DNA of 23,320 nucleotides from Promethearchaeota archaeon. GTDB taxonomy: Archaea; Asgardarchaeota; Lokiarchaeia; Sigyniarchaeales; SOKP01. The DNA lies in contig JABCSY010000063.1 in NCBI GenBank assembly GCA_018238625.1, positions 1 to 23,320 of the forward strand, in the 5' to 3' direction. The position numbers were made by a program, and so were the translations under genes. Under the pieces are notes generated by a model that saw nothing but the letters and a program-made list of their open reading frames with translations, was not told where the DNA came from and made no database searches. Shown here piece by piece: positions 8,812-21,934 of this stretch (positions are counted from its first letter, which is position 1; every line of letters starts with the position of its first letter).

Positions 8812-11800
8812 ATGCGTTACATCTTTAAAATTCTCTTATTGGGTTTAGATGGCGAAGCTATTTCTTTTTACGCTCTTAGAGCATTCGGGGAAGAGGGTGA
8901 AAATAAAGGAGCGTATTTGGAGTTTTATAAGGAAGTAAAAGCCTTCGAGGATATTTGCGATTTAGAAGTAAACGCAATAACCGATGTTATTAACGCAGAT
9001 TTTGATGATATCGTCCCAACTGTTGATGGCATAGTATATTTTTTGAACCCTCTAAACGAAGAGGAGAATGAATTTTTCGACATTATATTACCTATTGTTA
9101 AATCAGTTAAAAGAAACATCCCCATTGTTTTGATGTACTACGATCAACAAGGAATTCTTCCTTTATCTGTAAACGAGATGTTAGAAAGTCTTTGGTTCAA
9201 ATATCTTGACATAGAAGCATTTGTTAATCTTCCACCAAGAGAATTCCACCAAGTTTTGCAGTGTTTGTGCGTAGCAATGATAACGGGAATCTCCCCTCTT
9301 AACATCGAAAACGCGTGGATGAGGTTTCCCATTTATATTCAACTAGCAAATATTTTTTTCAAAAAAGCAGAAAAAGAATTCAAACCTGAATTTTATTTTT
9401 TTGCTGCCCAAGCCATTAAAAAAGCTGCGATAATTGCCGATATATTAAATAAAGAGGAATTTTACATAATGTGCGAACAAGCAGCTTTTCTCTATTCAAA
9501 AGTTAAGTTATATTTAGATGCTTCACAAATTTTACAAAATGTTGATAAAAAAAAATCGGAAAACTTCAAGAAGTTATACGCAGATAGTATGGTTTTAGAA
9601 GGTAATAAATTATTTAATAAAAGACAATACGATCTTGCGGCAAGGCAATACTTGGCAGCGGCCCAATGGTCGTCAATAGAACTCAAAGATAACGATTTGC
9701 GAGACGAATCGTTTCTTTTAGCAATTAATTCTTGGGTTTCTGCTTGTAAAGTTGAAAATGCGTTCGAAATTATCAATAGTCTCCCCCACGAGAAAACGCT
9801 TCTTATTCTACGTGAAATTCCTCAAAAAATTATTGCAATGGCGGATTATTTAATTAAGGAAAGGAAATATTTGACTGTCCGCGATCAGTTGTACAGTGCA
9901 GTCTCCGAATATCAACAAGAAGGCTTATTTGACGAATTAGAAAAAGTTACTTCTAAGTTGACTGAAGTCTTAATAACATTATTAAAACAACAGCTCAAGG
10001 AAGAAAAAAGGTTTTTTGCAAAGCAATCTTATGATGAAATCGAAAATCTTTGGCAAACTTATGATGTTAAAAAATCAAATGTAGACGCTCAATTAGAAAA
10101 ATTAATTAAATTATTCTTAGACAATCTTGAATTTGGCAACGCTACAATTTTAACTAATAAGTTAAATTCCTTGTCTGTAAAGAAAAAATTAACGAAATTA
10201 AGCTCTAAAGTTGAAGACGAAAATAAGGAGTTAATAAAGAAGGAAATAGAAGAAAATATTGAGAAAGGTGTGGAAATTCTAAACGGTTTTATTGAAAAGG
10301 AGATAGAAATTTTTACAGAAATTAACACCCTAATAATTCAAGAAGCTAATTCATTAATTGAAAGCAACGATTATCCAAAAGCCGCTAATCTGGTGAAAAT
10401 CCAAGCAGATTTTTTCAAACGAATTGCAAGGGAAGATATTCAAAATCAAATGTTAAAAAAAACCTTAGATATCCTCTTAATTGGTAAAATTTATGATCAA
10501 TTTTTTAAAGTGTATCGCGAATTATCAAAGAGAACAAAAAAGGAGTATTTAAAGAACAAACTTGCTATTATCATTGAAAAGTTAAATGAAATTGTAGAGG
10601 AACGAGATTACGAAGAAAATGAAAAAATATTTGAGCTTATTATTTCAATTTTTAGAGAACAAATGTTATACGAGCAATCTAAGGAAATTAGCAGTATCTT
10701 TATAGAATCAATCAAAGCCGAAGGACTCAAAATTGTCGAAAGTAGCGAAGATAAATTTGTCATCGAAACATCCTTGGATTTAATTAAAAAAGCTACAGAT
10801 ATTTCGTCAGCATATATGGAAAACCCGGAATTGAGTTTTAATAAGATATATAAGAGGATTACAGAAATATATATAACTTTAGATGATTTATCTTCTGCTC
10901 ACGCTATTACCGATAAAATCGACGATAAATCCCTTAAAACTGAGCTTAATAAGAGAATTGAAAATCTCGAAGCCGAAAAAAGCGCCATTATCGTTAAGAA
11001 AGCCGAAGAATCTTTTGAAGGGGAGGTTTTAAAAGAAAGACTCTCGATAATTCAAAGCAAAGCAAGAGAGGCGTTCCATGACAAGGAAAGGGAATTCAAA
11101 CAGAGAAAAGCCTTTAAAAAAACCTATTATCTTGACGCGTTAGCGTATTTGAGTACGCAAGATTTAGATAATGCCATAGAGGAATATAAAGAAAGCATAA
11201 AAAATTTAATTAGAATAAAAAAATATAATTTAGCTGGCGTTTCTTTAGCAGTACTTTTTCTATTGCTTATCAAACAAAATAAAATTGAAGATATTAACAA
11301 AATACTAATACGCGCAAAAACTAGTTTATCGAGTTTAGAAAAATCATTTACTGAAACTTTTCCAGTATCTTTAGTTGAATACCTTATAGATATCGAAAAA
11401 TTAAGCGATCCTGTTGTGTTGAATGAATCAATACAGTTTATGGAAAATTTGCCTTTATTTGAAGAAGAAACCTTCCTAATTTCTGATATCTTAGGTAAGT
11501 CACATAAAATAATTAGTGAGCCTGAAGATTTAAAAAAGCAAATTATTGAAATTGAGAAAATAAAAGATAAAATTAACGAATTATCTAAAAGTATACAAAA
11601 AGAAAGGAAAGATGTTGCAAGAAGAAAATTAATGAAAAATCAATATTGGAAATTAGCTTTAGAGGATCTTTCTAACAAAAAATTTCAAGTAGCCACAAAT
11701 GAATACAGTGATACAATTCCGAAATTACTGGAAAAAGATTTTCCTAAGCAAGCCTCAATAAGTCTGATATTAAGCACGTTTTTAATGGTGAAAACAAAGG

Positions 11801-12555
11801 GCGCGTCATTAGCTCAATCCTATTTAATTGATAAACTAGCGAAACATAAAAAACACGATCTTGAAGATATGCCGGAGATACAAATCACAAAAGAGCTTCT
11901 TTCAGCGATGGATAACAATGATTTAGAACTAATAGGTTTATGTTTAGACATTCTAATAGATAAATTAACTCTTTTTGACCCAGAGATCTTATTACTCGAA
12001 TCTCTTTTACACAAAAAAAAAGAACGAGGAGAAGAAGAAGTAAAATTAACACGGAAAGAAGTTGGAAAAATAAACCTACTCAATATAGAAATGGATCAAA
12101 TAGATGGTAAACTAAGGCAAAAAGAGGGAGATACTAGGAGAGAACGAGAAGAATTCTTAAAGAAACGTAGCGTAATGAAAAAGAGATATTACAAAGATGT
12201 AATTGAATCTCTCGAAAGTACTTCATTTAAAAAGGCGGGTCTGCAATATCTCGAATTAGCAAAAGCAACATCGAAAAGAAAAGACCTTAGAACAAGTTCG
12301 CTATTAATTCTTTTGCACGGATTATCCCTTCTAAAAGTAAACGAACCGATTAAGGAAATAAAAACAAATATTAAAATATTTCTTGACTTATTAGGTTTAA
12401 ATAAGCAATTAGTTGAAGATACTTTCCATATTACTCTCATAAAATTTTACTTAGATGTGATTTCGCATAATCTTGATAAATATCTTTCACATATAAGAGA
12501 AATGTTAGAATTATTACCTCTATTTGAAGAAGAAAGACAGTTAATTGAAATTTAA
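8812..12555 (+). CDS. large alpha-solenoid protein with degenerate N-terminal small-GTPase-like domain and three C-terminal repeats
   Basis: 1247 aa. The N-terminal strands YIFKILLLG, VDGIVYFLN and IPIVLMY follow Ras-fold order. TPR-like helices follow (GNKLFNKRQYDLAARQYLAAA). R-x2-[FM]-K-x2-Y-[YW]...L[PT]LF units occur three times. Confidence 0.85.
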   Translation: MRYIFKILLLGLDGEAISFYALRAFGEEGENKGAYLEFYKEVKAFEDICDLEVNAITDVINADFDDIVPTVDGIVYFLNPLNEEENEFFDIILPIVKSVKRNIPIVLMYYDQQGILPLSVNEMLESLWFKYLDIEAFVNLPPREFHQVLQCLCVAMITGISPLNIENAWMRFPIYIQLANIFFKKAEKEFKPEFYFFAAQAIKKAAIIADILNKEEFYIMCEQAAFLYSKVKLYLDASQILQNVDKKKSENFKKLYADSMVLEGNKLFNKRQYDLAARQYLAAAQWSSIELKDNDLRDESFLLAINSWVSACKVENAFEIINSLPHEKTLLILREIPQKIIAMADYLIKERKYLTVRDQLYSAVSEYQQEGLFDELEKVTSKLTEVLITLLKQQLKEEKRFFAKQSYDEIENLWQTYDVKKSNVDAQLEKLIKLFLDNLEFGNATILTNKLNSLSVKKKLTKLSSKVEDENKELIKKEIEENIEKGVEILNGFIEKEIEIFTEINTLIIQEANSLIESNDYPKAANLVKIQADFFKRIAREDIQNQMLKKTLDILLIGKIYDQFFKVYRELSKRTKKEYLKNKLAIIIEKLNEIVEERDYEENEKIFELIISIFREQMLYEQSKEISSIFIESIKAEGLKIVESSEDKFVIETSLDLIKKATDISSAYMENPELSFNKIYKRITEIYITLDDLSSAHAITDKIDDKSLKTELNKRIENLEAEKSAIIVKKAEESFEGEVLKERLSIIQSKAREAFHDKEREFKQRKAFKKTYYLDALAYLSTQDLDNAIEEYKESIKNLIRIKKYNLAGVSLAVLFLLLIKQNKIEDINKILIRAKTSLSSLEKSFTETFPVSLVEYLIDIEKLSDPVVLNESIQFMENLPLFEEETFLISDILGKSHKIISEPEDLKKQIIEIEKIKDKINELSKSIQKERKDVARRKLMKNQYWKLALEDLSNKKFQVATNEYSDTIPKLLEKDFPKQASISLILSTFLMVKTKGASLAQSYLIDKLAKHKKHDLEDMPEIQITKELLSAMDNNDLELIGLCLDILIDKLTLFDPEILLLESLLHKKKERGEEEVKLTRKEVGKINLLNIEMDQIDGKLRQKEGDTRREREEFLKKRSVMKKRYYKDVIESLESTSFKKAGLQYLELAKATSKRKDLRTSSLLILLHGLSLLKVNEPIKEIKTNIKIFLDLLGLNKQLVEDTFHITLIKFYLDVISHNLDKYLSHIREMLELLPLFEEERQLIEI

Positions 12556-13688: not shown

Positions 13689-14933
13689 ATGTCGTCCGAT
13701 ATCTCAAAAGTATTAAATGTCTTCTTAAAATTTCTAGACCCAAAAGTAGCTAAAATTGGTAAACTCAAAACCATTGAAGAAATAAAAGAATTACCAATAT
13801 ACTCTTACAAATTTCTTACAAAAAGCGAAGCTAAGGTTCTGAAAGATATATTGGACATATCTAATATCGAAGAAGCTTCCAAATTAGACAAGGAAAACCC
13901 CTTTGAAAGTTTAAATAATATTGGTTCAACTAAAGACCCGATTAAAGCTGCTGAAATCCAAGACGAATTAAGCGAAAAAATAGATGTGCTTAAAGAGAAA
14001 TACCCCGAACTTGAAGATAGCTTAAAAAAAGCAATTGTTATTAGTTCTATAATTACCAGAGTCGTAGATGAAGAAGATAGTTTAGAAAAAGCAGCGCAGA
14101 AAATAATAATAATTGGGTTAGACAATGCGGGAAAGACTGCAATTTTGAACAAGTTTGGAGGGCGGTTAGGTATTAACGATTTAGCTAACTTAAAGCCAAC
14201 TAAAGGTGTAGATCGTCGTTTTGTTAAAACCGAAAACTCTGAATTGGATCTTTATGTTTGGGATATGGGGGGTCAAGAAAAATACCGAAGTAAGTATTTA
14301 AATAATCCAGAACAATATTTTTTGAATCTTGATTTATTGATCTATGTAATTGACATGCAAGACTCGAATCGATTTGTGGAGAGTTTTGAGTATTTTGAAC
14401 AAATTCTTAAAATTTTAAACCTTATAGAAGAGGAACCTTTTATTTTAATATACATACACAAATGCGACCCGGATTTAAAACACGACCCCGAATCATTGCT
14501 TAAGATTGAACTTCTAAAAGAAAACCTTAATCAATTATTAACTCAGTACGGATTCGATTATGAAGCTTATTTAACTTCCATTTTTTCGTTAATCTCTACC
14601 GAACCCAAGTTTTCTAAATACATCAAAGAAGTAATGAGCTCAACAGACTCGTTAACAAACCCAACTTTAAAAAAGGTCGAAGGTCTGGGAAAAACTTTAG
14701 AAGAAACTATGAACGCGGTTATACGCTTATCTGAAAGCCTTTCCAAACAACTATCTGAATTGGATAACAGATTACGCGCAATTGAAAGCGGAGCTTTTCA
14801 AATGGCCCAAAGTGGAATTCCAATTGGAATTGCCAATCCTAATACGGCGTCAGAAAACCCAGGAGATTCCAGAACAACAGTTTTAAATGAATTGAAACAA
14901 TTATTTGAAAAAAAACGTAAATTAAACCTTTAG
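13689..14933 (+). CDS. Arf/Rag-like small GTPase with N-terminal extension and C-terminal coiled coil
   Basis: G1 GLDNAGKT, G2 KPTKG, G3 WDMGGQ, G4 HKCD, G5 YLTSIF. ~135-aa N-extension. Heptad segment LEETMNAVIRLSESLSKQLSELDNRLRAIE. Confidence 0.9.
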   Translation: MSSDISKVLNVFLKFLDPKVAKIGKLKTIEEIKELPIYSYKFLTKSEAKVLKDILDISNIEEASKLDKENPFESLNNIGSTKDPIKAAEIQDELSEKIDVLKEKYPELEDSLKKAIVISSIITRVVDEEDSLEKAAQKIIIIGLDNAGKTAILNKFGGRLGINDLANLKPTKGVDRRFVKTENSELDLYVWDMGGQEKYRSKYLNNPEQYFLNLDLLIYVIDMQDSNRFVESFEYFEQILKILNLIEEEPFILIYIHKCDPDLKHDPESLLKIELLKENLNQLLTQYGFDYEAYLTSIFSLISTEPKFSKYIKEVMSSTDSLTNPTLKKVEGLGKTLEETMNAVIRLSESLSKQLSELDNRLRAIESGAFQMAQSGIPIGIANPNTASENPGDSRTTVLNELKQLFEKKRKLNL

Positions 14934-14992: not shown

Positions 14993-15706
14993 TTATTTAA
15001 AACTTCCAATAATCTCTTTAATTCTTTTGTTAATAGCAACAAGAAAAACTAATGTAACTATCCCAATAACTAAAATTAAATACCAAATGTTTTCAAATAG
15101 TAAGGGATTAAATACGTGATAGTGAATAGTCCCTCCATAAAATTGCTCAAAAAAAGTAATTATACTCAACAAGATTGGTGCAGCTAAAATTACAGCAAAA
15201 AAAAACCCAATAATCCCAATAAAAAAACCGAAAATTACATCGCTAGGGTAATGTACTCCTAATTGAATCCTGGAAAAAGAGACACTCACAGCAAAAATAA
15301 AGACAATAATAGTTATCGCTATTGAGTTTAACAAATAAGCAAATAACAATCCTTGAGAAAAAACATTATAAGCGTGCCAAGAAGGAAAGCTCCTCGAAGT
15401 TGGTTTTCGCTCTAGAACATTTATCTCTTTTAGCGTTTCGAAAGGTCTTTCTCTATCAAAACTCTTTTTTAATGGAGCAATTACGATTACACCAAGCAGA
15501 AATATTGTCGAAATATTTGAAAACAAAAATGGTGCGTACCAAATGAATAAGTAAAACACCATTAGAACGATCCATATAGTCTCTCTTCCCAAAAATGATA
15601 CAATTTTTAGAAAATTAGTGAAAAAATTACCTCCAATGCCGTTATATTTTAAAATTATTTTCTGATCCCAATTATTGACCTTGTTAAATATGTTTTTTAA
15701 TTCCAT
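14993..15706 (-). CDS. PAP2-family membrane phosphatase
   Basis: C1 KKSFDRERP, C2 SFPSWH, C3 SRIQLGVHYPSDV, multiple TM helices. Confidence 0.9.
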   Translation of the reverse strand: MELKNIFNKVNNWDQKIILKYNGIGGNFFTNFLKIVSFLGRETIWIVLMVFYLFIWYAPFLFSNISTIFLLGVIVIAPLKKSFDRERPFETLKEINVLERKPTSRSFPSWHAYNVFSQGLLFAYLLNSIAITIIVFIFAVSVSFSRIQLGVHYPSDVIFGFFIGIIGFFFAVILAAPILLSIITFFEQFYGGTIHYHVFNPLLFENIWYLILVIGIVTLVFLVAINKRIKEIIGSFK

Positions 15707-15720
15707 AATTATTGTGCTTT

Positions 15721-16524
15721 TTATTTGTTTAACCCTAAAAATTGGTACGCTTTCTTTACCTTAGGGATTTGTTCTTGAAAGTACTTAACTGAATGCGAGT
15801 CTGACCCGACAAAAAATTTCGCGTCTGACCGAAATTCAGATTTTAATTGGCGTACAATTTCTTTAGAAGGAAAAGGTCGTTTAATTGGAAATCTTAAACC
15901 AGACAGATTATATTCGATGAGAATTTTGTTCTTTACACACAAACGGCCAAGTTCTAATATCCGATCTTCCGAAGTGTTGCAATCGTCTAAAACTTTTATG
16001 TCGTTATCGTTGATATAGCGGTAAATCGTGTCGATATGACAGATGTTTTTAAATATTTTAGATTTTATCATCATCTCGCTAACTTCAAAGTAGTCGTCTA
16101 TAACTTGCTTCATTGGTGTCTTTTCTAACAATTCTAATAATCTTTCTCTTGATGTTATCGGATAGCGATAAATCCACTCGTGGACTGTTCCACCAATAAA
16201 ATCCAATTCTTTACCATAATCGTCCATAAATTCCATTAATTCAATTTCCCGATCTCGGTAATATTCTACCTCGAGACCGCCTAGGATGAAATTATAAGTT
16301 TCTTTTAACTCGTCTATCTCTTCAAGGTAATCGTCGATTTTGCTATCGTAAAAAGGGTTTGTTTTGTCTTGTTCTATGTAATACAGTTCATAATGTTCAA
16401 GAAAACAGATGTTAATTTCATTTGCTTCAGCAATCTTAATATAATCCTCAAATGTAGGTCCATCTTTCGCAATATCTGCGCTCCAGTTCGTATGGATGTG
16501 ATAATCAGTATGTTTATACTTCAT
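15721..16524 (-). CDS. PHP-family phosphoesterase (histidinol-phosphatase HisJ-like)
   Basis: DYHIHT, FLEH, GLEVEY, GTVH, CHID and GSDSH metal-binding motifs. Confidence 0.85.
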   Translation of the reverse strand: MKYKHTDYHIHTNWSADIAKDGPTFEDYIKIAEANEINICFLEHYELYYIEQDKTNPFYDSKIDDYLEEIDELKETYNFILGGLEVEYYRDREIELMEFMDDYGKELDFIGGTVHEWIYRYPITSRERLLELLEKTPMKQVIDDYFEVSEMMIKSKIFKNICHIDTIYRYINDNDIKVLDDCNTSEDRILELGRLCVKNKILIEYNLSGLRFPIKRPFPSKEIVRQLKSEFRSDAKFFVGSDSHSVKYFQEQIPKVKKAYQFLGLNK

Positions 16525-16573: not shown

Positions 16574-18481
16574 TTAATCCATCGAATTTTCCTTGTCAAA
16601 ATACACTTCGTAAAACAATTCTTTTTCACCCACTTCAGGTGGATTAATTTTAGTATACCCTCCTTTTCGGATAATTTGGACCGTGCTTTTATTTTGAATG
16701 TGGATGCTGCCATAAAATCCTTTTATCCCTTTTTCTTTCGCGATGATAATTAAATGGTGATAGAGAAAGGAACCTATGCCTTTTCCTCTATAATCCTCTC
16801 TTACTACAAAACTATATTCTGCTAAATTCATGGTTGGATTTAAATAATAAGTAGCATTTCCTATCATAGCTTCGTTTCCGACCTCTCCCACATAAGCTCC
16901 GATAGAGAATACATTATTATAGTCGATATTTACTTCACTTTGAGTCTTAGAATGGGTGAATTCCTTCCTTACTTCAAAAAAGCGTAAATACCTATCTCTC
17001 TCGTTTAAGGAATAATAAAGCTCTTTTAATAAAGGCTCGTCAGTAGTTCTAACTGGTCTAACTACGATCTTTTCGTTATTTCTTGCAGTGTATATTGTTT
17101 CGTACTTGAAAGGATACATACAGATGTTTCCATGCTCGTCGCAAGGTAGAATTTGATCCGAATAAATATAATTTAACTTTTTCGCGTGTTCTAACAACTG
17201 TTCTCTAAATTTAGGATGAGCTACGCAAATTAGTTCAATAACTCGTTCTCTAATTGTCTTACCGTGCACATAAGCAACGCCCCATTCGGTAACTACGTAA
17301 TGAACGTCTGCTCGAGATAAAATTACTCCGGCACCTTCATCTAAATGAGGTACAATATTTGAAACGGTCTCATTTTTTCTTGTCGACGCGAGCACGACAA
17401 TCGGTTTTCCCCCTTTAGAAAAAGCTGCCCCCCTCATGAAATCTACCGTATCCCCAATCCCAGAATAGAAGTTATACCCTTTAGTAGAAGTATTAACTTG
17501 CCCCGTTAAATCAATTTGCAAACCTTGGTTTATAGAAACCATTTTTTTGTTCATTCCAATGTATTTTGGATTACAAACGTAGTCACTAGGATAAAACTCT
17601 ATATACGGGTTATTATTTACGAAGTCATACAATTTTTTAGTGCCTAACGCGAAACTTGTTATAATCTTTTCAGGGTGAAAATTTTTCTTTCTACAAGTTA
17701 GAACTGTGTTTTCTATCAAAGGAATTATATTATCCGTGATATAATGGCTATGCATGCCTAAATCTTTTTTACTCATTAAATATTTTAAGCAAGCGTTCGG
17801 TAAATAACCGTTACCAATATGAATCGTCGATTTGTTTTCAATTAAATTTGCTACATTCTTTCCAATTTTTCCCGAAACAATAATTTTTTCTTTAAATTGG
17901 AACTCTAATAGTGGCACATCGTTGTAAACGAAATAGTCGATGTCTTTCATGTGAATAAAGCTATTGCCCAAGGTTCGGGGCATTTGAGAGTTAATTTCAG
18001 CGATTGTTAAATAAGCAGCTTGGGCTATGGGTTTTGCCACATCAATGTTAATCCCAAACGAACAAAAACCGTAACGATCTGGTGGTGTGACTTGAATAAG
18101 AGCAACATCGCAATTTTTACGCCCTGAAAGAAATAAAGAAGGAATTTCGCTCGCTAATATTGGTGTATAATCAGCTTGCCCTTTATTTATCTCCTCTCGT
18201 AGGGTTTTACCTATGAAAAATGCGTTATGTCTAAAAAGATCTTCCCTTTTATCTTTAAAATATTTTTCAGGACCAATCGTAAGAAAATGTATAATCTCCG
18301 TATCAATTAAACTTTCAGAAGACTTAATTAACTCAGTAGTAAGCGCTTGAGGCTCTGAACACGCAGAATCTACGAATACTCGGTTTCCGGGTATTATTTT
18401 TCCTATAGCTTCCTTTGCGGTTATCTCTTTTGCCTTCCACCTTTCTCTCCAATTCTTATCTGATGAATCCAATTGTTTCAT
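16574..18481 (-). CDS. acetyl-CoA hydrolase/CoA-transferase-fold domain fused to C-terminal Pat-type GNAT acetyltransferase
   Basis: DVALIQVTPPDRYGFCSFG, IAEINSQMPRTLG, QIDLTGQV, DFMRGA and VHYVVTEWGVA mark the CoA-transferase fold. VRPVRTTDEPLL...RYLRFF...AEYSFVVREDYRGKGIGS marks the GNAT. Confidence 0.9.
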   Translation of the reverse strand: MKQLDSSDKNWRERWKAKEITAKEAIGKIIPGNRVFVDSACSEPQALTTELIKSSESLIDTEIIHFLTIGPEKYFKDKREDLFRHNAFFIGKTLREEINKGQADYTPILASEIPSLFLSGRKNCDVALIQVTPPDRYGFCSFGINIDVAKPIAQAAYLTIAEINSQMPRTLGNSFIHMKDIDYFVYNDVPLLEFQFKEKIIVSGKIGKNVANLIENKSTIHIGNGYLPNACLKYLMSKKDLGMHSHYITDNIIPLIENTVLTCRKKNFHPEKIITSFALGTKKLYDFVNNNPYIEFYPSDYVCNPKYIGMNKKMVSINQGLQIDLTGQVNTSTKGYNFYSGIGDTVDFMRGAAFSKGGKPIVVLASTRKNETVSNIVPHLDEGAGVILSRADVHYVVTEWGVAYVHGKTIRERVIELICVAHPKFREQLLEHAKKLNYIYSDQILPCDEHGNICMYPFKYETIYTARNNEKIVVRPVRTTDEPLLKELYYSLNERDRYLRFFEVRKEFTHSKTQSEVNIDYNNVFSIGAYVGEVGNEAMIGNATYYLNPTMNLAEYSFVVREDYRGKGIGSFLYHHLIIIAKEKGIKGFYGSIHIQNKSTVQIIRKGGYTKINPPEVGEKELFYEVYFDKENSMD

Positions 18482-18570
18482 ATCAATAGATTTAATCTTT
18501 TATTCTTATTGTATTATATTAGCTTCGTCCATTTTTAATATTTTTACTTATTATTATATCAAGATAGATT

Positions 18571-18870
18571 TTATGATCCATCCTCCTTCTTTTTAGTATT
18601 AATGTAAGGTGATTTTGCTTCCCAAGGAGCATCAGGATCCAAAGGATTCCACCGATTGTTTAAATGTCTTAAAAATTGCTTTTGACCTTCAATCCCTCCA
18701 TTTAATATTCTATGATAGTCGTATTTACCTTTAATCTTCCGTTGAAGTATAAAAATAAGTTCTTCCTCTGTCATATTATATTTTTCATAAATATCCTTGT
18801 AAAACATTCCTCGTCGGAATTCGTTGAAGGCATTGTTAACTTCAATTTTTTCATTTTCTTTAGATGTCAT
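18571..18870 (-). CDS. small hypothetical protein, possible HTH
   Basis: 99-aa ORF filling the gap. RRGMFYKDIYEKYNMTEEELIFIL is HTH-like. Confidence 0.65.
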   Translation of the reverse strand: MTSKENEKIEVNNAFNEFRRGMFYKDIYEKYNMTEEELIFILQRKIKGKYDYHRILNGGIEGQKQFLRHLNNRWNPLDPDAPWEAKSPYINTKKKEDGS

Positions 18871-18993
18871 GTAAGGAGATAAAAATTCTGTTGCTTAAAA
18901 ATTTGAATTATTAAATTGAATTAACTACTGTTGAAAACCAGAAAGATACATTAATCGTCCTAATACTTATTTGGGTATTTTATCCTCTCGGAA

Positions 18994-19299
18994 TTACCTG
19001 AATTTTAAAAAAAAAGAAATATATATTACTCCACTGCCAGAAATGACACACGCAATCAATGGAGGAATTAAATAAAAAATATATTGCTCAAAGTCTACGA
19101 ATAATAAAGGTACAATAAAAATTATCTGTAAAAATGTCACAATAAACATTAATCCTCCCAAAAAGAATAGGAATGTAATAATTATTAATTTCGAACTCAT
19201 AGCTCTACTTTCAATCATGATACAATTAACGCATATTCCTATCTTTTCCTCAAAATCCCCCTCAACGAGTTCTTGATCGCAGATTTCACAATTTGGCAT
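18994..19299 (-). CDS. small Zn-finger membrane protein
   Basis: CEIC-x15-CVNC followed by two hydrophobic helices. AGGAG at 19313-19309 upstream of the ATG. Confidence 0.8.
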   Translation of the reverse strand: MPNCEICDQELVEGDFEEKIGICVNCIMIESRAMSSKLIIITFLFFLGGLMFIVTFLQIIFIVPLLFVDFEQYIFYLIPPLIACVISGSGVIYISFFLKFR

Positions 19300-19453
19300 T
19301 ATTTTTTACTCCTAAATAAAATTAAATAAAAAGATTATACGATTATTTAAAATTCTTTTCTATTGAAAACGAATCTTTTAGAATATTAATTCTTATAACT
19401 TTCTTTCGCCAAAAATTGTAGTTTAGTAATTTATTTATATTCAAAAATTATTA

Positions 19454-19678
19454 ATGATCAATATGTCAAAATGTCCGTATTGTAATGCAGAAATTCATTT
19501 AGAAGATTTTTTCGAAGTTACTGAGAAAGAGACCAAAAAAGGAACAATTAAAAAAAGAATCGGAGAATTTAAAGGAGAAAAAGAATGGGTTGGAGTTGCT
19601 CGCAATAATGTCAGAATGTGGGTTTGTCCATCGTGCGATAAGATCTTGGGTTTTTCAGAATATGCTTATGCTAGTTAA
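19454..19678 (+). CDS. small Zn-ribbon protein
   Basis: CPYC...WVCPSCDKILG. The start may be the ATG at 19463 (MSKCPYC). A T-rich tract follows. Confidence 0.8.
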   Translation: MINMSKCPYCNAEIHLEDFFEVTEKETKKGTIKKRIGEFKGEKEWVGVARNNVRMWVCPSCDKILGFSEYAYAS

Positions 19679-19951
19679 TAATTCCATTTCTAAGATTTTT
19701 TTATTTTATTAATCTTTTTGAACAATGAGTTTATTGAATCGTATATCATAGTACTCTTTTTATATTTTTTATAAATAAAATCTTTAAAAATAATATTATA
19801 TATTATCTTCTTAAATCAATACTGTCTATTTAATCCAAAATGTTTAAATGTGATAAGATTGAAAATAAATGTTTTAAATTTTTAAAGAATTTAAAAAATC
19901 AAGAAATTCTAACAATACAATTAAATTAGATATTCAAATTAGTGAAATATT

Positions 19952-21934
19952 ATGTCAGAAAAAGACACAAAAATGGAAAGTGTACTCACTGAAAATCGGT
20001 TATTTAACCCCGTAGATGTCAGTCCCGACTATGCGAAAACTGGAATGTCAATGGAAGAATACCAGAAGTTATATAAACGATCCATAGAAGATAGGGAAGG
20101 GTTCTGGGACGAACAAGCTAAATCGATCGATTGGTTTAAACCATACGATAAAGTATGGGAAAAAACCGATCTATTTCCCGGAAAATGGTTTGTTGGCGGA
20201 AAACTTAACGTAGCCTACAATTGTCTTGACAGACATGTGAAAGCTGGCAATGGAGATCGAGTCGCTATTATATGGGAGGCTGACGAACCCGGTCAAGTGA
20301 GAAAATTCACATATACCGAGCTTTTAAAAGAAGTAAGTAAAGTAGCTAACGGTATGAGAGATTTCGGACTGAAAAAGGGCGATAGAGTAACCATTTGGTT
20401 ACCAATGATTCCCGAATTAGCGATTATAATGCTAGCCTGTGCTCGAATCGGCGTGATTCATTCCATAGTATTCGGTGGATTCTCGAAAGAAGCTGTGAAA
20501 GATAGAGTGAAAGATTCTGATTCGCGATTATTGTTTACGAGCGACGAAACTTTACGCGCTGGTAAGACTTACCCAAAAATGGCAGATGTCGTTAAGATTA
20601 TTGACGATGTACCAACAATCGAACACGTCATTGTCGTTAAGCGTTCAGGAAACGAAGTTCCTCACACAGATAAAGACATCTGGTATGATGATTTTATCGA
20701 CGGAATGAGCGACGAGTGTGAACCCGAAGAAATGGACTCCGAAGATACGCTATTTTTACTCTATACAAGCGGAACAACAGGAAAACCTAAAGGCGTTAAA
20801 CACACAACAGCCGGATATATCTTATATACATCGTTCACTCACAGAGTCGTATTCAATTACAAGAAAGGCGAGGTTTGGTACTGTACAGCGGATATTGGTT
20901 GGATAACGGGGCATAGTTATATTATATATGGTCCATTGGCAAATGGAGCAACCACTTTAATGTTTGAAAGCGTTCCAACATATCCTGATGTAGATCGTTT
21001 TTGGGACATTGTAGAACGCCATAAAGTCAACCAATTTTATACAGCTCCAACTGCAATACGTGCTCTAATGAGACACGGCGATGAACCAGTAAATAAACAC
21101 GACCTAAGCTCGTTAAAAGTCCTAGGTACTGTTGGAGAACCAATAAATCCTGAAGCATGGACATGGTACCATAGAGTTGTTGGTAAAGAGAAATGTCCTA
21201 TAGTTGATACTTACTGGCAAACTGAAACCGGTGGGTTTATTATGACCCCAATTGCTACAGCAACGCCCACAAAACCAGGGTCTTGTTGTATGCCTTTTTT
21301 CGGCATCAAACCAGTTATTTTTGACTTAGAAGGAGATGAAATTACCGAACCAAACGAAGGTGGATACTTCGCTATTCAAACTCCATGGCCGGGAATGTTA
21401 AGAGATGTTTGGGGCAATACTGATAGATTTATATCAACTTACCTCGAAAAGTATCCTGGACATTATTACACCGGAGATGGAGCACGAACAGATGACGATG
21501 GCTATTATTGGATCCTTGGACGATTGGATGATGTTATAAAAGTATCAGGGCACCGTATAGGAACAATGGAAGTAGAATCTGCTATAGTGAGTCATCCAAA
21601 GGTAGCGGAAGCTGCCGTAGCACCCTTTCCTCACAAGATTAAAGGGCAAGCTATTTGGGCGTTCGTGACGTTAATGGGTGGCATTGAAAAATCAGCAAAA
21701 TTATCGAAAGAGATTCGCATGCATGTTAGGCAAGAGATTGGTCCAGTATTTCAACCGGATGTAATTCAATTTGCTGATGCCTTGCCTAAAACGCGAAGTG
21801 GTAAGATAATGCGCAGAATTCTTAAAGCTATTGCTTCGGGCACAGAAATAGGTAATGTTACGACCTTAGCTGATCCTTCAGTAGTCGATGTACTGCTTGA
21901 AGAGCGTAAGAAAATGGATGTCGAAGTAGGTTAA
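19952..21934 (+). CDS. acs: acetate--CoA ligase (AMP-forming acetyl-CoA synthetase)
   Basis: LNVAYNCLDRH, YTSGTTGKPKG, CTADIGWITGHSY, VGEPINPEAW, DTYWQTETGG, GRLDDVIKVSGHRIGTMEVE, LPKTRSGKIMRR. Confidence 0.97.
   Translation: MSEKDTKMESVLTENRLFNPVDVSPDYAKTGMSMEEYQKLYKRSIEDREGFWDEQAKSIDWFKPYDKVWEKTDLFPGKWFVGGKLNVAYNCLDRHVKAGNGDRVAIIWEADEPGQVRKFTYTELLKEVSKVANGMRDFGLKKGDRVTIWLPMIPELAIIMLACARIGVIHSIVFGGFSKEAVKDRVKDSDSRLLFTSDETLRAGKTYPKMADVVKIIDDVPTIEHVIVVKRSGNEVPHTDKDIWYDDFIDGMSDECEPEEMDSEDTLFLLYTSGTTGKPKGVKHTTAGYILYTSFTHRVVFNYKKGEVWYCTADIGWITGHSYIIYGPLANGATTLMFESVPTYPDVDRFWDIVERHKVNQFYTAPTAIRALMRHGDEPVNKHDLSSLKVLGTVGEPINPEAWTWYHRVVGKEKCPIVDTYWQTETGGFIMTPIATATPTKPGSCCMPFFGIKPVIFDLEGDEITEPNEGGYFAIQTPWPGMLRDVWGNTDRFISTYLEKYPGHYYTGDGARTDDDGYYWILGRLDDVIKVSGHRIGTMEVESAIVSHPKVAEAAVAPFPHKIKGQAIWAFVTLMGGIEKSAKLSKEIRMHVRQEIGPVFQPDVIQFADALPKTRSGKIMRRILKAIASGTEIGNVTTLADPSVVDVLLEERKKMDVEVG

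Follow-up and report, generated by a model that had tools for sequence, protein, structure and literature searches.

What a protein acetyltransferase reads through its partner domain is the question raised by a fused gene in a Lokiarchaeial genome. Reversible acetylation of acetyl-CoA synthetase (Acs) is a textbook metabolic switch, and in the architectures described so far the acetyltransferase is paired with an NDP-forming synthetase domain that is inactive or with a cAMP or ACT sensor, or has no added domain. The stretch analysed here, hereafter the window, comprises positions 1 to 23,320 (forward strand) of contig JABCSY010000063.1 in assembly GCA_018238625.1, from a Promethearchaeota archaeon of the order Sigyniarchaeales. 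At 16574..18481 on the minus strand it carries a gene for a 635-aa protein in which, according to its open reading frame, Pfam domains and AlphaFold2 model, a class I CoA-transferase-like domain is joined to a Pat-type GNAT domain; the gene is divergent from acs. We report the architecture of this protein, the replacement and conservation of its active-site residues, its linkage to acs and its family context. Our favoured reading, which we consider rather probable, is that the protein is a lysine acetyltransferase of the Pat/AcuA kind that acts on Acs, and that its CoA-transferase-like domain is regulatory and non-catalytic. The Pat/AcuA-type acetylation switch on Acs is known; what is new is the uncharacterised, widespread partner domain and its remodelling in this lineage.

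Architecture of the fused protein

The N-terminal domain (residues 15-440; 17162..18439, minus strand) has the fold of the 4-hydroxybutyrate CoA-transferases. Pfam places AcetylCoA_hydro (PF02550) at residues 29-191 (1.2e-29) and AcetylCoA_hyd_C (PF13336) at residues 280-433 (1.3e-60), and in phmmer searches of the PDB the top matches of this part are 4-hydroxybutyrate CoA-transferases (9vag at 7e-112, and 3eh7, 2oas, 3d3u and 3gk7; E-values from 1e-92 to 7e-112), Yersinia RipA being matched as well. Identity to class I CoA-transferases of known structure is 31-39% over 420-440 residues, and the NCBIfam model butyr_acet_CoA reaches 248.7 bits over residues 11-437, under its cut-off of 674.8. 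In the AlphaFold2 model, made with a 51-row alignment (pLDDT 90, pTM 0.87), the N-terminal part falls on 3gk7, 2oas, 3eh7 and RipA with Foldseek TM(target) values of 0.92-0.95. Pfam matches above cut-offs, phmmer and Foldseek agree on homology to class I CoA-transferases and on their two-lobed alpha/beta fold; none of the Foldseek matches was a solved chain spanning both domains of the fusion (TM by query 0.65).

The C-terminal GNAT domain (residues about 455-625; 16607..17119, minus strand) matches Acetyltransf_1 (PF00583) at residues 510-598 (5e-9). By phmmer, its best match in the PDB is an 886-aa protein acetyltransferase (9it0, chain residues 709-864, 5e-15), and further matches are 4nxy, Sulfolobus Pat (3f8k) and mycobacterial Pat (4orf, 7e-7); the alignment spans the entire Pat-type GNAT, the N-terminal YP...RP...D...Y.RFF stretch included. 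Glu555 of the fusion is aligned with chain residue 809 of 9it0, E809, the catalytic Glu and general base of Pat, and is present in all 121 orthologues, a set that consists of the query and its best 120 matches (75-94% identical). The RxxGxG acetyl-CoA motif is intact by codon check (R565, G568, G570); G568 is found in 120 of the 121 orthologues, and position 570 is G in 107 and A in 14. With the 9it0 match, this motif and the aligned Glu, the domain belongs to the Pat subtype and has kept its acetyl-CoA motif, as an earlier interpretation of the window made without database searches (the sequence-only reading) had held. The NCBIfam Pat model scores 47 bits on the fusion, under its cut-off of 460, and the protein does not have the type I Pat architecture with an N-terminal NDP-forming acyl-CoA-synthetase-like domain, its N-domain being CoA-transferase-like.

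A rebuilt CoA-transferase active site

How much of a CoA-transferase is left in the N-domain? HMMER searches over 1.84 billion representatives gave 1523 proteins at E ≤ 1e-30, of which the best 150 were analysed. Those 82 of the 150 cluster representatives that have both Glu246 and Gly343-Gly344 (G344 is thus at 100% by definition) were taken as the canonical set, and a position was called conserved when it reached at least 85% within these 82 relatives. There are 67 such positions in the domain. The orthologous clade of the window keeps 61 of them, and the six that are altered are D216N, G217K, Q221H, E246H, N303C and G344D/E.

The query stretch DLGMHSHYITD is aligned on DLG[VI]HTE[ML]..D in all four printed PDB alignments, and His246 (codon CAT, 17744..17746, minus strand, confirmed by a scripted codon check) therefore occupies the place of the catalytic Glu nucleophile. 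In the same four alignments, IHIGNG falls on LQ[ML]GIG and SGIGDTVDF on SG.GGQ.DF. Among the orthologues, position 246 is H in 115, Y in 4, L in 1 and F in 1; Glu, which in class I enzymes forms the glutamyl-CoA thioester, occurs in none of the 121. The canonical Gln of LQxGIG is replaced by His221 (17819..17821, minus strand), with H in 121/121 orthologues vs Q in 93% of the canonical relatives, and the canonical Asn, the putative internal oxyanion-hole residue, by Cys303 (17573..17575, minus strand), with C in 121/121 vs N in 89%. The GGQ of SGxGGQxDF has become Gly343-Asp344-Thr345 (17447..17455, minus strand), where the canonical G344 would be the external oxyanion-hole glycine; position 344 is D in 64 orthologues and E in 57, and position 345 is T in 120 of the 121. 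The gating Ile/Val position (224) is Asn or Phe.

The functional assignment of these sites leans on two characterised enzymes. In RipA, according to the accessible part of PMC3180442, Glu249 is the nucleophile that forms the CoA thioester and the gating loop G-V227-G lies 22 residues ahead of it; the spacing from G-N224-G to H246 in the query is the same. In AarC, the accessible part of PMC4876117 gives Asn347 as the internal and Gly388 as the external oxyanion hole, describes Gly388 as strictly conserved across class I, and places Gln267, Glu294, Asn347 and Gly388 within a few angstroms of one another. Sites in the fusion match AarC Gln267, Val270, Glu294, Asn347 and Gly388 by spacing only, not by a structural alignment (303-344 in the fusion and 347-388 in AarC both span 41 residues), and it is on this spacing that we infer oxyanion-hole roles for canonical Asn303 and Gly344. 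The glycine of the GxGG loop, equated with AarC Gly388 from spacing, is thus D or E in the fusion. Residues 224 (17810-17812) and 344 (17450-17452) covary, Asn224 occurring with Asp344 in 55 orthologues and Phe224 with Glu344 in 44, with few mixed pairings; the covariation could reflect a contact or just two subclades.

Mean pairwise identity in the 121 orthologues is 0.80 for the CoA-transferase-like domain vs 0.81 for the GNAT. Being conserved like the GNAT, the domain is therefore constrained and remodelled, not decaying. Judged from the alignments, the active site is remodelled into conserved His/His/Cys/Asp-Glu residues and is not plainly dead. The sequence-only reading had spoken of a pseudo-enzyme. 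Its residue and codon coordinates were all reproduced by script, and the replacement of the catalytic Glu by His246, the altered SGIGDTVDF and IHIGNG loops and, with them, the loss of the nucleophile and of the loop Gly stand, but a site rebuilt with fixed residues is not simply a dead one.

Such a pattern raises the possibility that His221, His244, His246, Cys303 and Asp/Glu344 form a metal or redox centre, which would sense a signal other than acyl-CoA and still gate the GNAT. Four catalytic-site positions have changed together to residues of the metal-ligand type (H221, C303 and D/E344 in 121/121 orthologues, H246 in 115/121), H244 is retained, and the AarC equivalents by spacing lie a few angstroms apart (PMC4876117, accessible part). 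In addition, two relatives among the representatives, P0124 and P0125, both without the Glu, have an N-terminal 4Fe-4S dicluster domain ahead of the CoA-transferase-like and GNAT domains. However, H246 is Y, L or F in six of the 121 orthologues, the sister copy of the clade has S303 and F246, and the equivalence to AarC is by spacing only. We regard a metal or redox centre as unlikely.

Linkage to acs in the orthologous clade

The gene divergent from the fusion gene (19952..21934, plus strand) encodes an AMP-forming acetyl-CoA synthetase. Its product scores 953.6 bits with the equivalog TIGR02188 (cut-off 724.95) and 983 bits with NF001208, and it has the catalytic/regulatory lysine, Lys618 (codon AAG, 21803..21805, plus strand, by codon check), in PKTRSGK. 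This PX4GK motif with K618 is invariant in 28 aligned Acs, and the lysine is the acetylation site of Pat and AcuA enzymes in other organisms (PMC3195501 and PMC11255334, accessible parts). The start codons of the fusion gene and acs are 1470 bp apart. The divergent intergenic region (18482..19951) is this long because two small ORFs lie inside it, at 18571-18870 and 18994-19299, both on the minus strand.

Conservation of the arrangement was surveyed in one genome per species, which gave 79 loci, 78 from Asgard archaea and one an unfused spirochaete gene. acs is present in 61 of the 78 Asgard loci, always upstream and on the opposite strand, and the gap between the fusion gene and acs is 155-426 bp in 42 of these 61. 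Among the 48 orthologous loci with at least 3 kb of upstream sequence, acs is divergent in 46, the two without it being L009 and L065; of the 30 loci with shorter upstream sequence, the end of acs is visible in 15. The rest of the block is conserved as well, with a PHP gene in 73, a PAP2 gene in 66 and an Arf/Rag-like GTPase gene in 68 of the 79 loci. In one His-type orthologue, L073, a deacetylase gene sits where the PHP gene usually does, the sole AcuC-type case in the 78 orthologous loci. Locus L036 (DATKTW010000124.1), labelled as a Candidatus Nanopelagicaceae bacterium, is probably a mis-binned contig; the fusion (79%) and the PHP, PAP2 and GTPase genes of the Asgard block are all on it.

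Fused copies in other Asgard families

Is the association with acs older than the clade, or has it arisen more than once? Of 400 genomes of the phylum, 266 match the fusion protein at E ≤ 1e-20, the presence of a fusion being unchecked for matches near 1e-20, and in the family of the window (f1) a match at this threshold is found in 126 of 134 genomes. Many genomes of the phylum have two or three fused copies. In the genome of the window there is one, the single PF13336 match being the fusion protein itself; a catalytic paralogue supplying the activity in this genome was therefore considered and rejected, two to three copies being the rule in most related genomes.

Neighbourhoods were examined in 40 regions from 32 genomes of the phylum. 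In family f31, the best copy, at 43-45% identity, retains both HTEM and SGIGGQVDF; the fused gene is divergent from acs in 9 of 10 sampled loci, and the gene in between encodes an MFS transporter (7 loci) or a member of the Gpr1/Fun34/YaaH acetate-channel family (2 loci). At two f31 loci (L102:8001-11793 and L103:8004-11825) the fused gene is tandemly duplicated by the MFS transporter gene and acs, with Glu in both copies. In family f28, a Glu-bearing copy is convergent with acs in 2 of 3 loci (gaps of 101 and 419 bp), and the f28 acs is 79-81% identical to that of the window. The single f32 locus has no acs within 8 kb. At three Asgard loci (L112, L116 and L120) a gene for an ADP-forming acetyl-CoA synthetase (ACD) lies directly downstream of the fused gene.

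In a 105-row tree, the His-type clade (SH-aLRT 100) has as its sister P0121, with Phe246, and the two together are nested within a Lokiarchaeial group of Glu-bearing paralogues (99), the linked f31 and f28 clades lying elsewhere. A single clade of all acs-linked copies was rejected in an AU test on a 40-row subset (dlnL 855, AU p 2e-37), in which the linked group had been named after the tree was seen. Thus, acs linkage is found in three separate branches and in two orientations, which argues for function.

As regards the sequence-only reading, a divergent acs about 1.5 kb away with K618 is borne out by the 1470-bp distance and the TIGR02188 score above cut-off, and the expected synteny with acs among homologues was recovered in 46 of the 48 loci with room for it and is seen again in two further clades of fused genes. 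The idea that loss of the Glu goes together with acs linkage did not survive: the linked f31 and f28 copies keep HTEM and GGQ, and the loss is recurrent, with at least eight state changes. Glu loss as the mark of an acs-linked group was accordingly rejected.

The wider family

The best 150 of the 1523 representatives comprise 71 full-length fusions, 60 unfused proteins and 19 partial ones that were left uncounted. Position 246 is Glu in 40, Asp in 15 and another residue in 16 of the fused representatives; among the unfused ones, Glu occurs in 45 and Gly in 12. The state of this position, Glu or non-Glu, has changed at least eight times on the tree, and the Glu of the GNAT is retained in 25 of the 31 fused representatives that have no Glu at 246. 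The recurrent loss of the Glu in fusions, together with the retention of the GNAT Glu, indicates that catalysis by the CoA-transferase-like domain is dispensable in the fusion. Two representatives, P0156 and P0173, are triple fusions of CoA-transferase-like, GNAT and Hist_deacetyl domains in a single polypeptide, joining writer and eraser, and both are without the Glu.

When metagenomes were scanned with an alignment built from 20 distant fusions, 80 loci (GC 29-73%) were recovered, and a fused ORF was called in 71. Glu is present at position 246 in 68 of the 70 readable metagenome fusions. When 602 flanking ORFs were grouped by unbiased clustering, the commonest neighbour was an ACD (ATP-grasp_5, Succ_CoA_lig, CoA_binding_2), found near 28 of the 71 fused loci and immediately upstream of the fused gene, in the same orientation, at 20 of the 71 (40 of which 71 have at least 2.2 kb upstream); 23 of the 28 retain the SHTGS-type His motif. 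A Hist_deacetyl gene lies near 14 loci and directly downstream in 11 of the 71, 54 of which have at least 1.3 kb downstream. By tblastn, acs (42-58% identity) is within 8 kb in 10 of the 80 loci; with one acs per genome of about 4 Mb, we estimate that chance would place a gene this close to it in about 0.4% of cases. The deacetylase, ADP-forming synthetase and acetate-transporter context fits a lysine-acetylation switch on acetate activation. In the ESM Atlas, at least ten clusters of 59-196 members have the same architecture; they are mostly bacterial, Thermodesulfobacteriota being the commonest among the labelled members, and have automatic names such as 'bifunctional acetyl-CoA hydrolase/transferase family protein/GNAT family N-acetyltransferase'.

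Since most members retain the Glu, the ancestral domain may have been either an enzyme or a covalent sensor. A more far-reaching proposal is that CoA-transferase-GNAT fusions make up a sixth, widespread lysine-acetyltransferase architecture in which the ancestral domain read the acetyl-CoA/acetate ratio via a covalent half-reaction, and that in the present lineage the site was converted to a new, metal/redox-type sensing centre, with acetylation of Acs under the control of some signal besides acyl-CoA. To us this seems improbable.

The Asp at position 246 of some relatives bears on another possibility, that the N-domain is still a CoA-transferase or acyl-CoA hydrolase, acting through a relocated carboxylate (Asp/Glu344) or by some other route, and that the protein is bifunctional. 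The acidic residue at 344 is invariant and adjoins the old nucleophile position, Asp occupies position 246 in 15 of the 71 fused representatives, an Asp serves class III CoA-transferases, and the remaining fold and 61 of the 67 conserved positions are intact. We know, on the other hand, of no such relocation of the nucleophile in class I. Moreover, the putative internal oxyanion Asn is lost, the gating Ile/Val is replaced by Asn or Phe, and the Gly lost at 344 is the presumed external oxyanion hole, which is strictly conserved in class I (PMC4876117, accessible part). We consider a surviving transferase or hydrolase activity to be very unlikely.

Acs as the presumed target

The context of the gene resembles that of B. 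subtilis acsA/acuABC and the protein resembles Salmonella Pat, and the fusion is therefore read as an acetyltransferase of Acs K618. With Salmonella/E. coli Pat (PatZ/YfiQ) it has in common a GNAT of the Pat subtype at the C-terminus (9it0, 5e-15), a large N-domain taken from a CoA-handling enzyme minus the catalytic residue, and the PKTRSGK lysine of Acs as a target, which is known for Pat and proposed here. Unlike in Pat, where the N-domain has an NDP-forming acyl-CoA synthetase fold, the N-domain of the fusion has the class I CoA-transferase fold. In Salmonella Pat that domain, an NDP-forming synthetase homologue without the catalytic His, adds another site for acetyl-CoA and confers cooperativity (h 2.2) as well as tetramerisation (PMC3195501, accessible part). 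In B. subtilis, acsA is divergent from acuABC, and AcsA is acetylated by AcuA and deacetylated again by the Zn deacetylase AcuC (PMC11255334, accessible part). The window likewise has acs divergent from an acetyltransferase gene, the acsA/acuABC layout, and distant relatives of the fusion can have, as in acuABC, a gene for an AcuC-type Zn deacetylase after that for the acetyltransferase; in contrast, AcuA is a single-domain GNAT, and where an acuC-type gene would follow, the window has a PHP phosphoesterase gene. With AbfT, RipA and butyryl-CoA:acetate CoA-transferase the N-domain shares the fold and 61 of 67 conserved positions, but it differs from them in Glu to His, GGQ to G(D/E)T, Asn303 to Cys, Gln221 to His and gating Ile/Val to Asn/Phe, and in being fused to a GNAT. 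Finally, type III GNATs (cAMP-binding MtPat and the ACT-domain Pats) also have a domain N-terminal to the GNAT, which binds a ligand there and is proposed to be regulatory here, although the putative sensor domain of the fusion is of another family.

On our favoured reading, the GNAT would acetylate the neighbouring AMP-forming Acs at Lys618 and so turn acetate activation off, and sirtuins encoded elsewhere in the genome would undo the acetylation. The N-domain would derive from a class I CoA-transferase of the 4-hydroxybutyrate/butyryl-CoA:acetate type that lost its nucleophile and both presumed oxyanion-hole residues in the Lokiarchaeial lineage, and strong constraint would have preserved it as a module for regulation or oligomerisation that has no catalytic function. 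Most likely it would bind CoA or acyl-CoA, in a role analogous to that of the inactive NDP-forming-synthetase-like domain of Salmonella Pat; both this ligand binding and the direction of regulation are what we infer.

Several observations weigh against such a role. No deacetylase gene, AcuC-type or other, was found in the window by Pfam. The replaced residues of the N-domain are strictly conserved and position 344 is acidic, which could mean new chemistry over a role in binding only. All acs-linked copies outside the His-type clade, and most members of the family, keep the Glu, so that the ancestral domain may function as an enzyme rather than a sensor. In genome G130, no acs lies within 9 kb of the sister-type copy (F246). 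Lastly, since acs, the fusion, PHP, PAP2 and GTPase genes form a block that is syntenic as a whole, linkage within the clade could by itself be inherited order.

These last points lead to the question of whether the GNAT might act elsewhere, on an ADP-forming acetyl-CoA synthetase or another acyl-CoA ligase, broadly on many proteins, or on a small molecule, the adjacency of acs then being a matter of co-regulation or inherited synteny. An ACD is the commonest neighbour of the distant relatives (28 of 71 loci), the genome of the window has about 12 further AMP-forming ligase genes and 2 ACD genes, acs is absent within 8 kb of the fused copies in all 25 loci of the Glu-bearing f1 paralogue and of the f3, f4 and f16 copies, and the block of the orthologous clade is syntenic as a whole. 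However, three separated clades show acs linkage, with both orientations represented, and Acs has the invariant PX4GK lysine, a motif that is a known target of Pat-type GNATs (PMC3195501, accessible part). A target other than Acs therefore strikes us as unlikely, and Acs K618 remains the one we favour.

Neighbouring genes and the rest of the genome

Downstream of the fusion gene, and separated from it by 49 bp, is a gene for a PHP-domain phosphoesterase (15721-16524, minus strand), followed after 14 bp by a PAP2 phosphatase gene (14993-15706, minus strand), both assigned by Pfam. They are probable operon partners of the fusion gene. As components of the system they were rejected, being absent beside fused genes outside the orthologous clade, and their adjacency is likely to be lineage synteny only. 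In one metatranscriptome library, an 8.8-kb contig of a 93%-alike relative runs across PAP2, PHP and the fusion gene, and a 910-nt contig covers the 5′ end of acs; since in an RNA library a contig spanning several genes may stem from carried-over DNA, no conclusion on expression is drawn, and the uncovered parts are uninformative.

Of the two small ORFs in the divergent region, the 101-aa one has relatives in 10 of the 79 loci and the 99-aa one in none of the 79. The 101-aa product has a Cys-rich N-terminus and membrane helices. A 93%-alike contig from a public library has 257 other letters in place of the segment 18379-18934.

The PAP2 gene is faced by a convergent gene (13689-14933, plus strand), syntenic in 68 of the 79 loci, for a 414-aa protein. 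Residues 134-324 of this protein form an Arf/Gtr1-RagA-type small GTPase core, flanked on both sides by long extensions. An ORF of 1247 aa (8812-12555, plus strand) matches no Pfam family at E up to 0.001.

Elsewhere in the genome there are five SIR2 genes, whose products are likely to be the erasers. Contig C84 (18736-24901) has three genes for AMP-forming acyl-CoA ligases in tandem and, after them in convergent orientation, a SIR2 deacetylase gene; this is possibly a second acylation-control locus of this genome. A 105-aa frame on contig C35 (4740-5036) is 80% identical to the last 99 residues of Acs, the regulatory-lysine region included; a second fragment of acs, or a strain variant within the bin, could account for it.

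Implications

Full-text literature searches, in which subscription journals lay outside the coverage, found no paper on a CoA-transferase-GNAT fusion. A 2026 preprint on Asgard chromatin treats GNATs as histone acetyltransferase candidates, and neither 'hydrolase' nor 'CoA transferase' occurs in its main text. The locus and the family survey point to another architecture besides those already described, the fusion of a Pat-type GNAT to a domain with the class I CoA-transferase fold, which is common in Asgard archaea and is also found in anaerobic bacteria. Within the family the transferase site ranges from intact through lost to rebuilt, with at least eight changes between Glu and non-Glu, and this natural series makes the question of what the partner domain of an acetyltransferase senses directly testable. 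The fusion is probably one member of a class of acetate-use switches that is widespread and has gone unstudied. For the biology of Asgard archaea, in whose syntrophic life acetate is a central currency, the locus suggests that acetate assimilation is under post-translational control.

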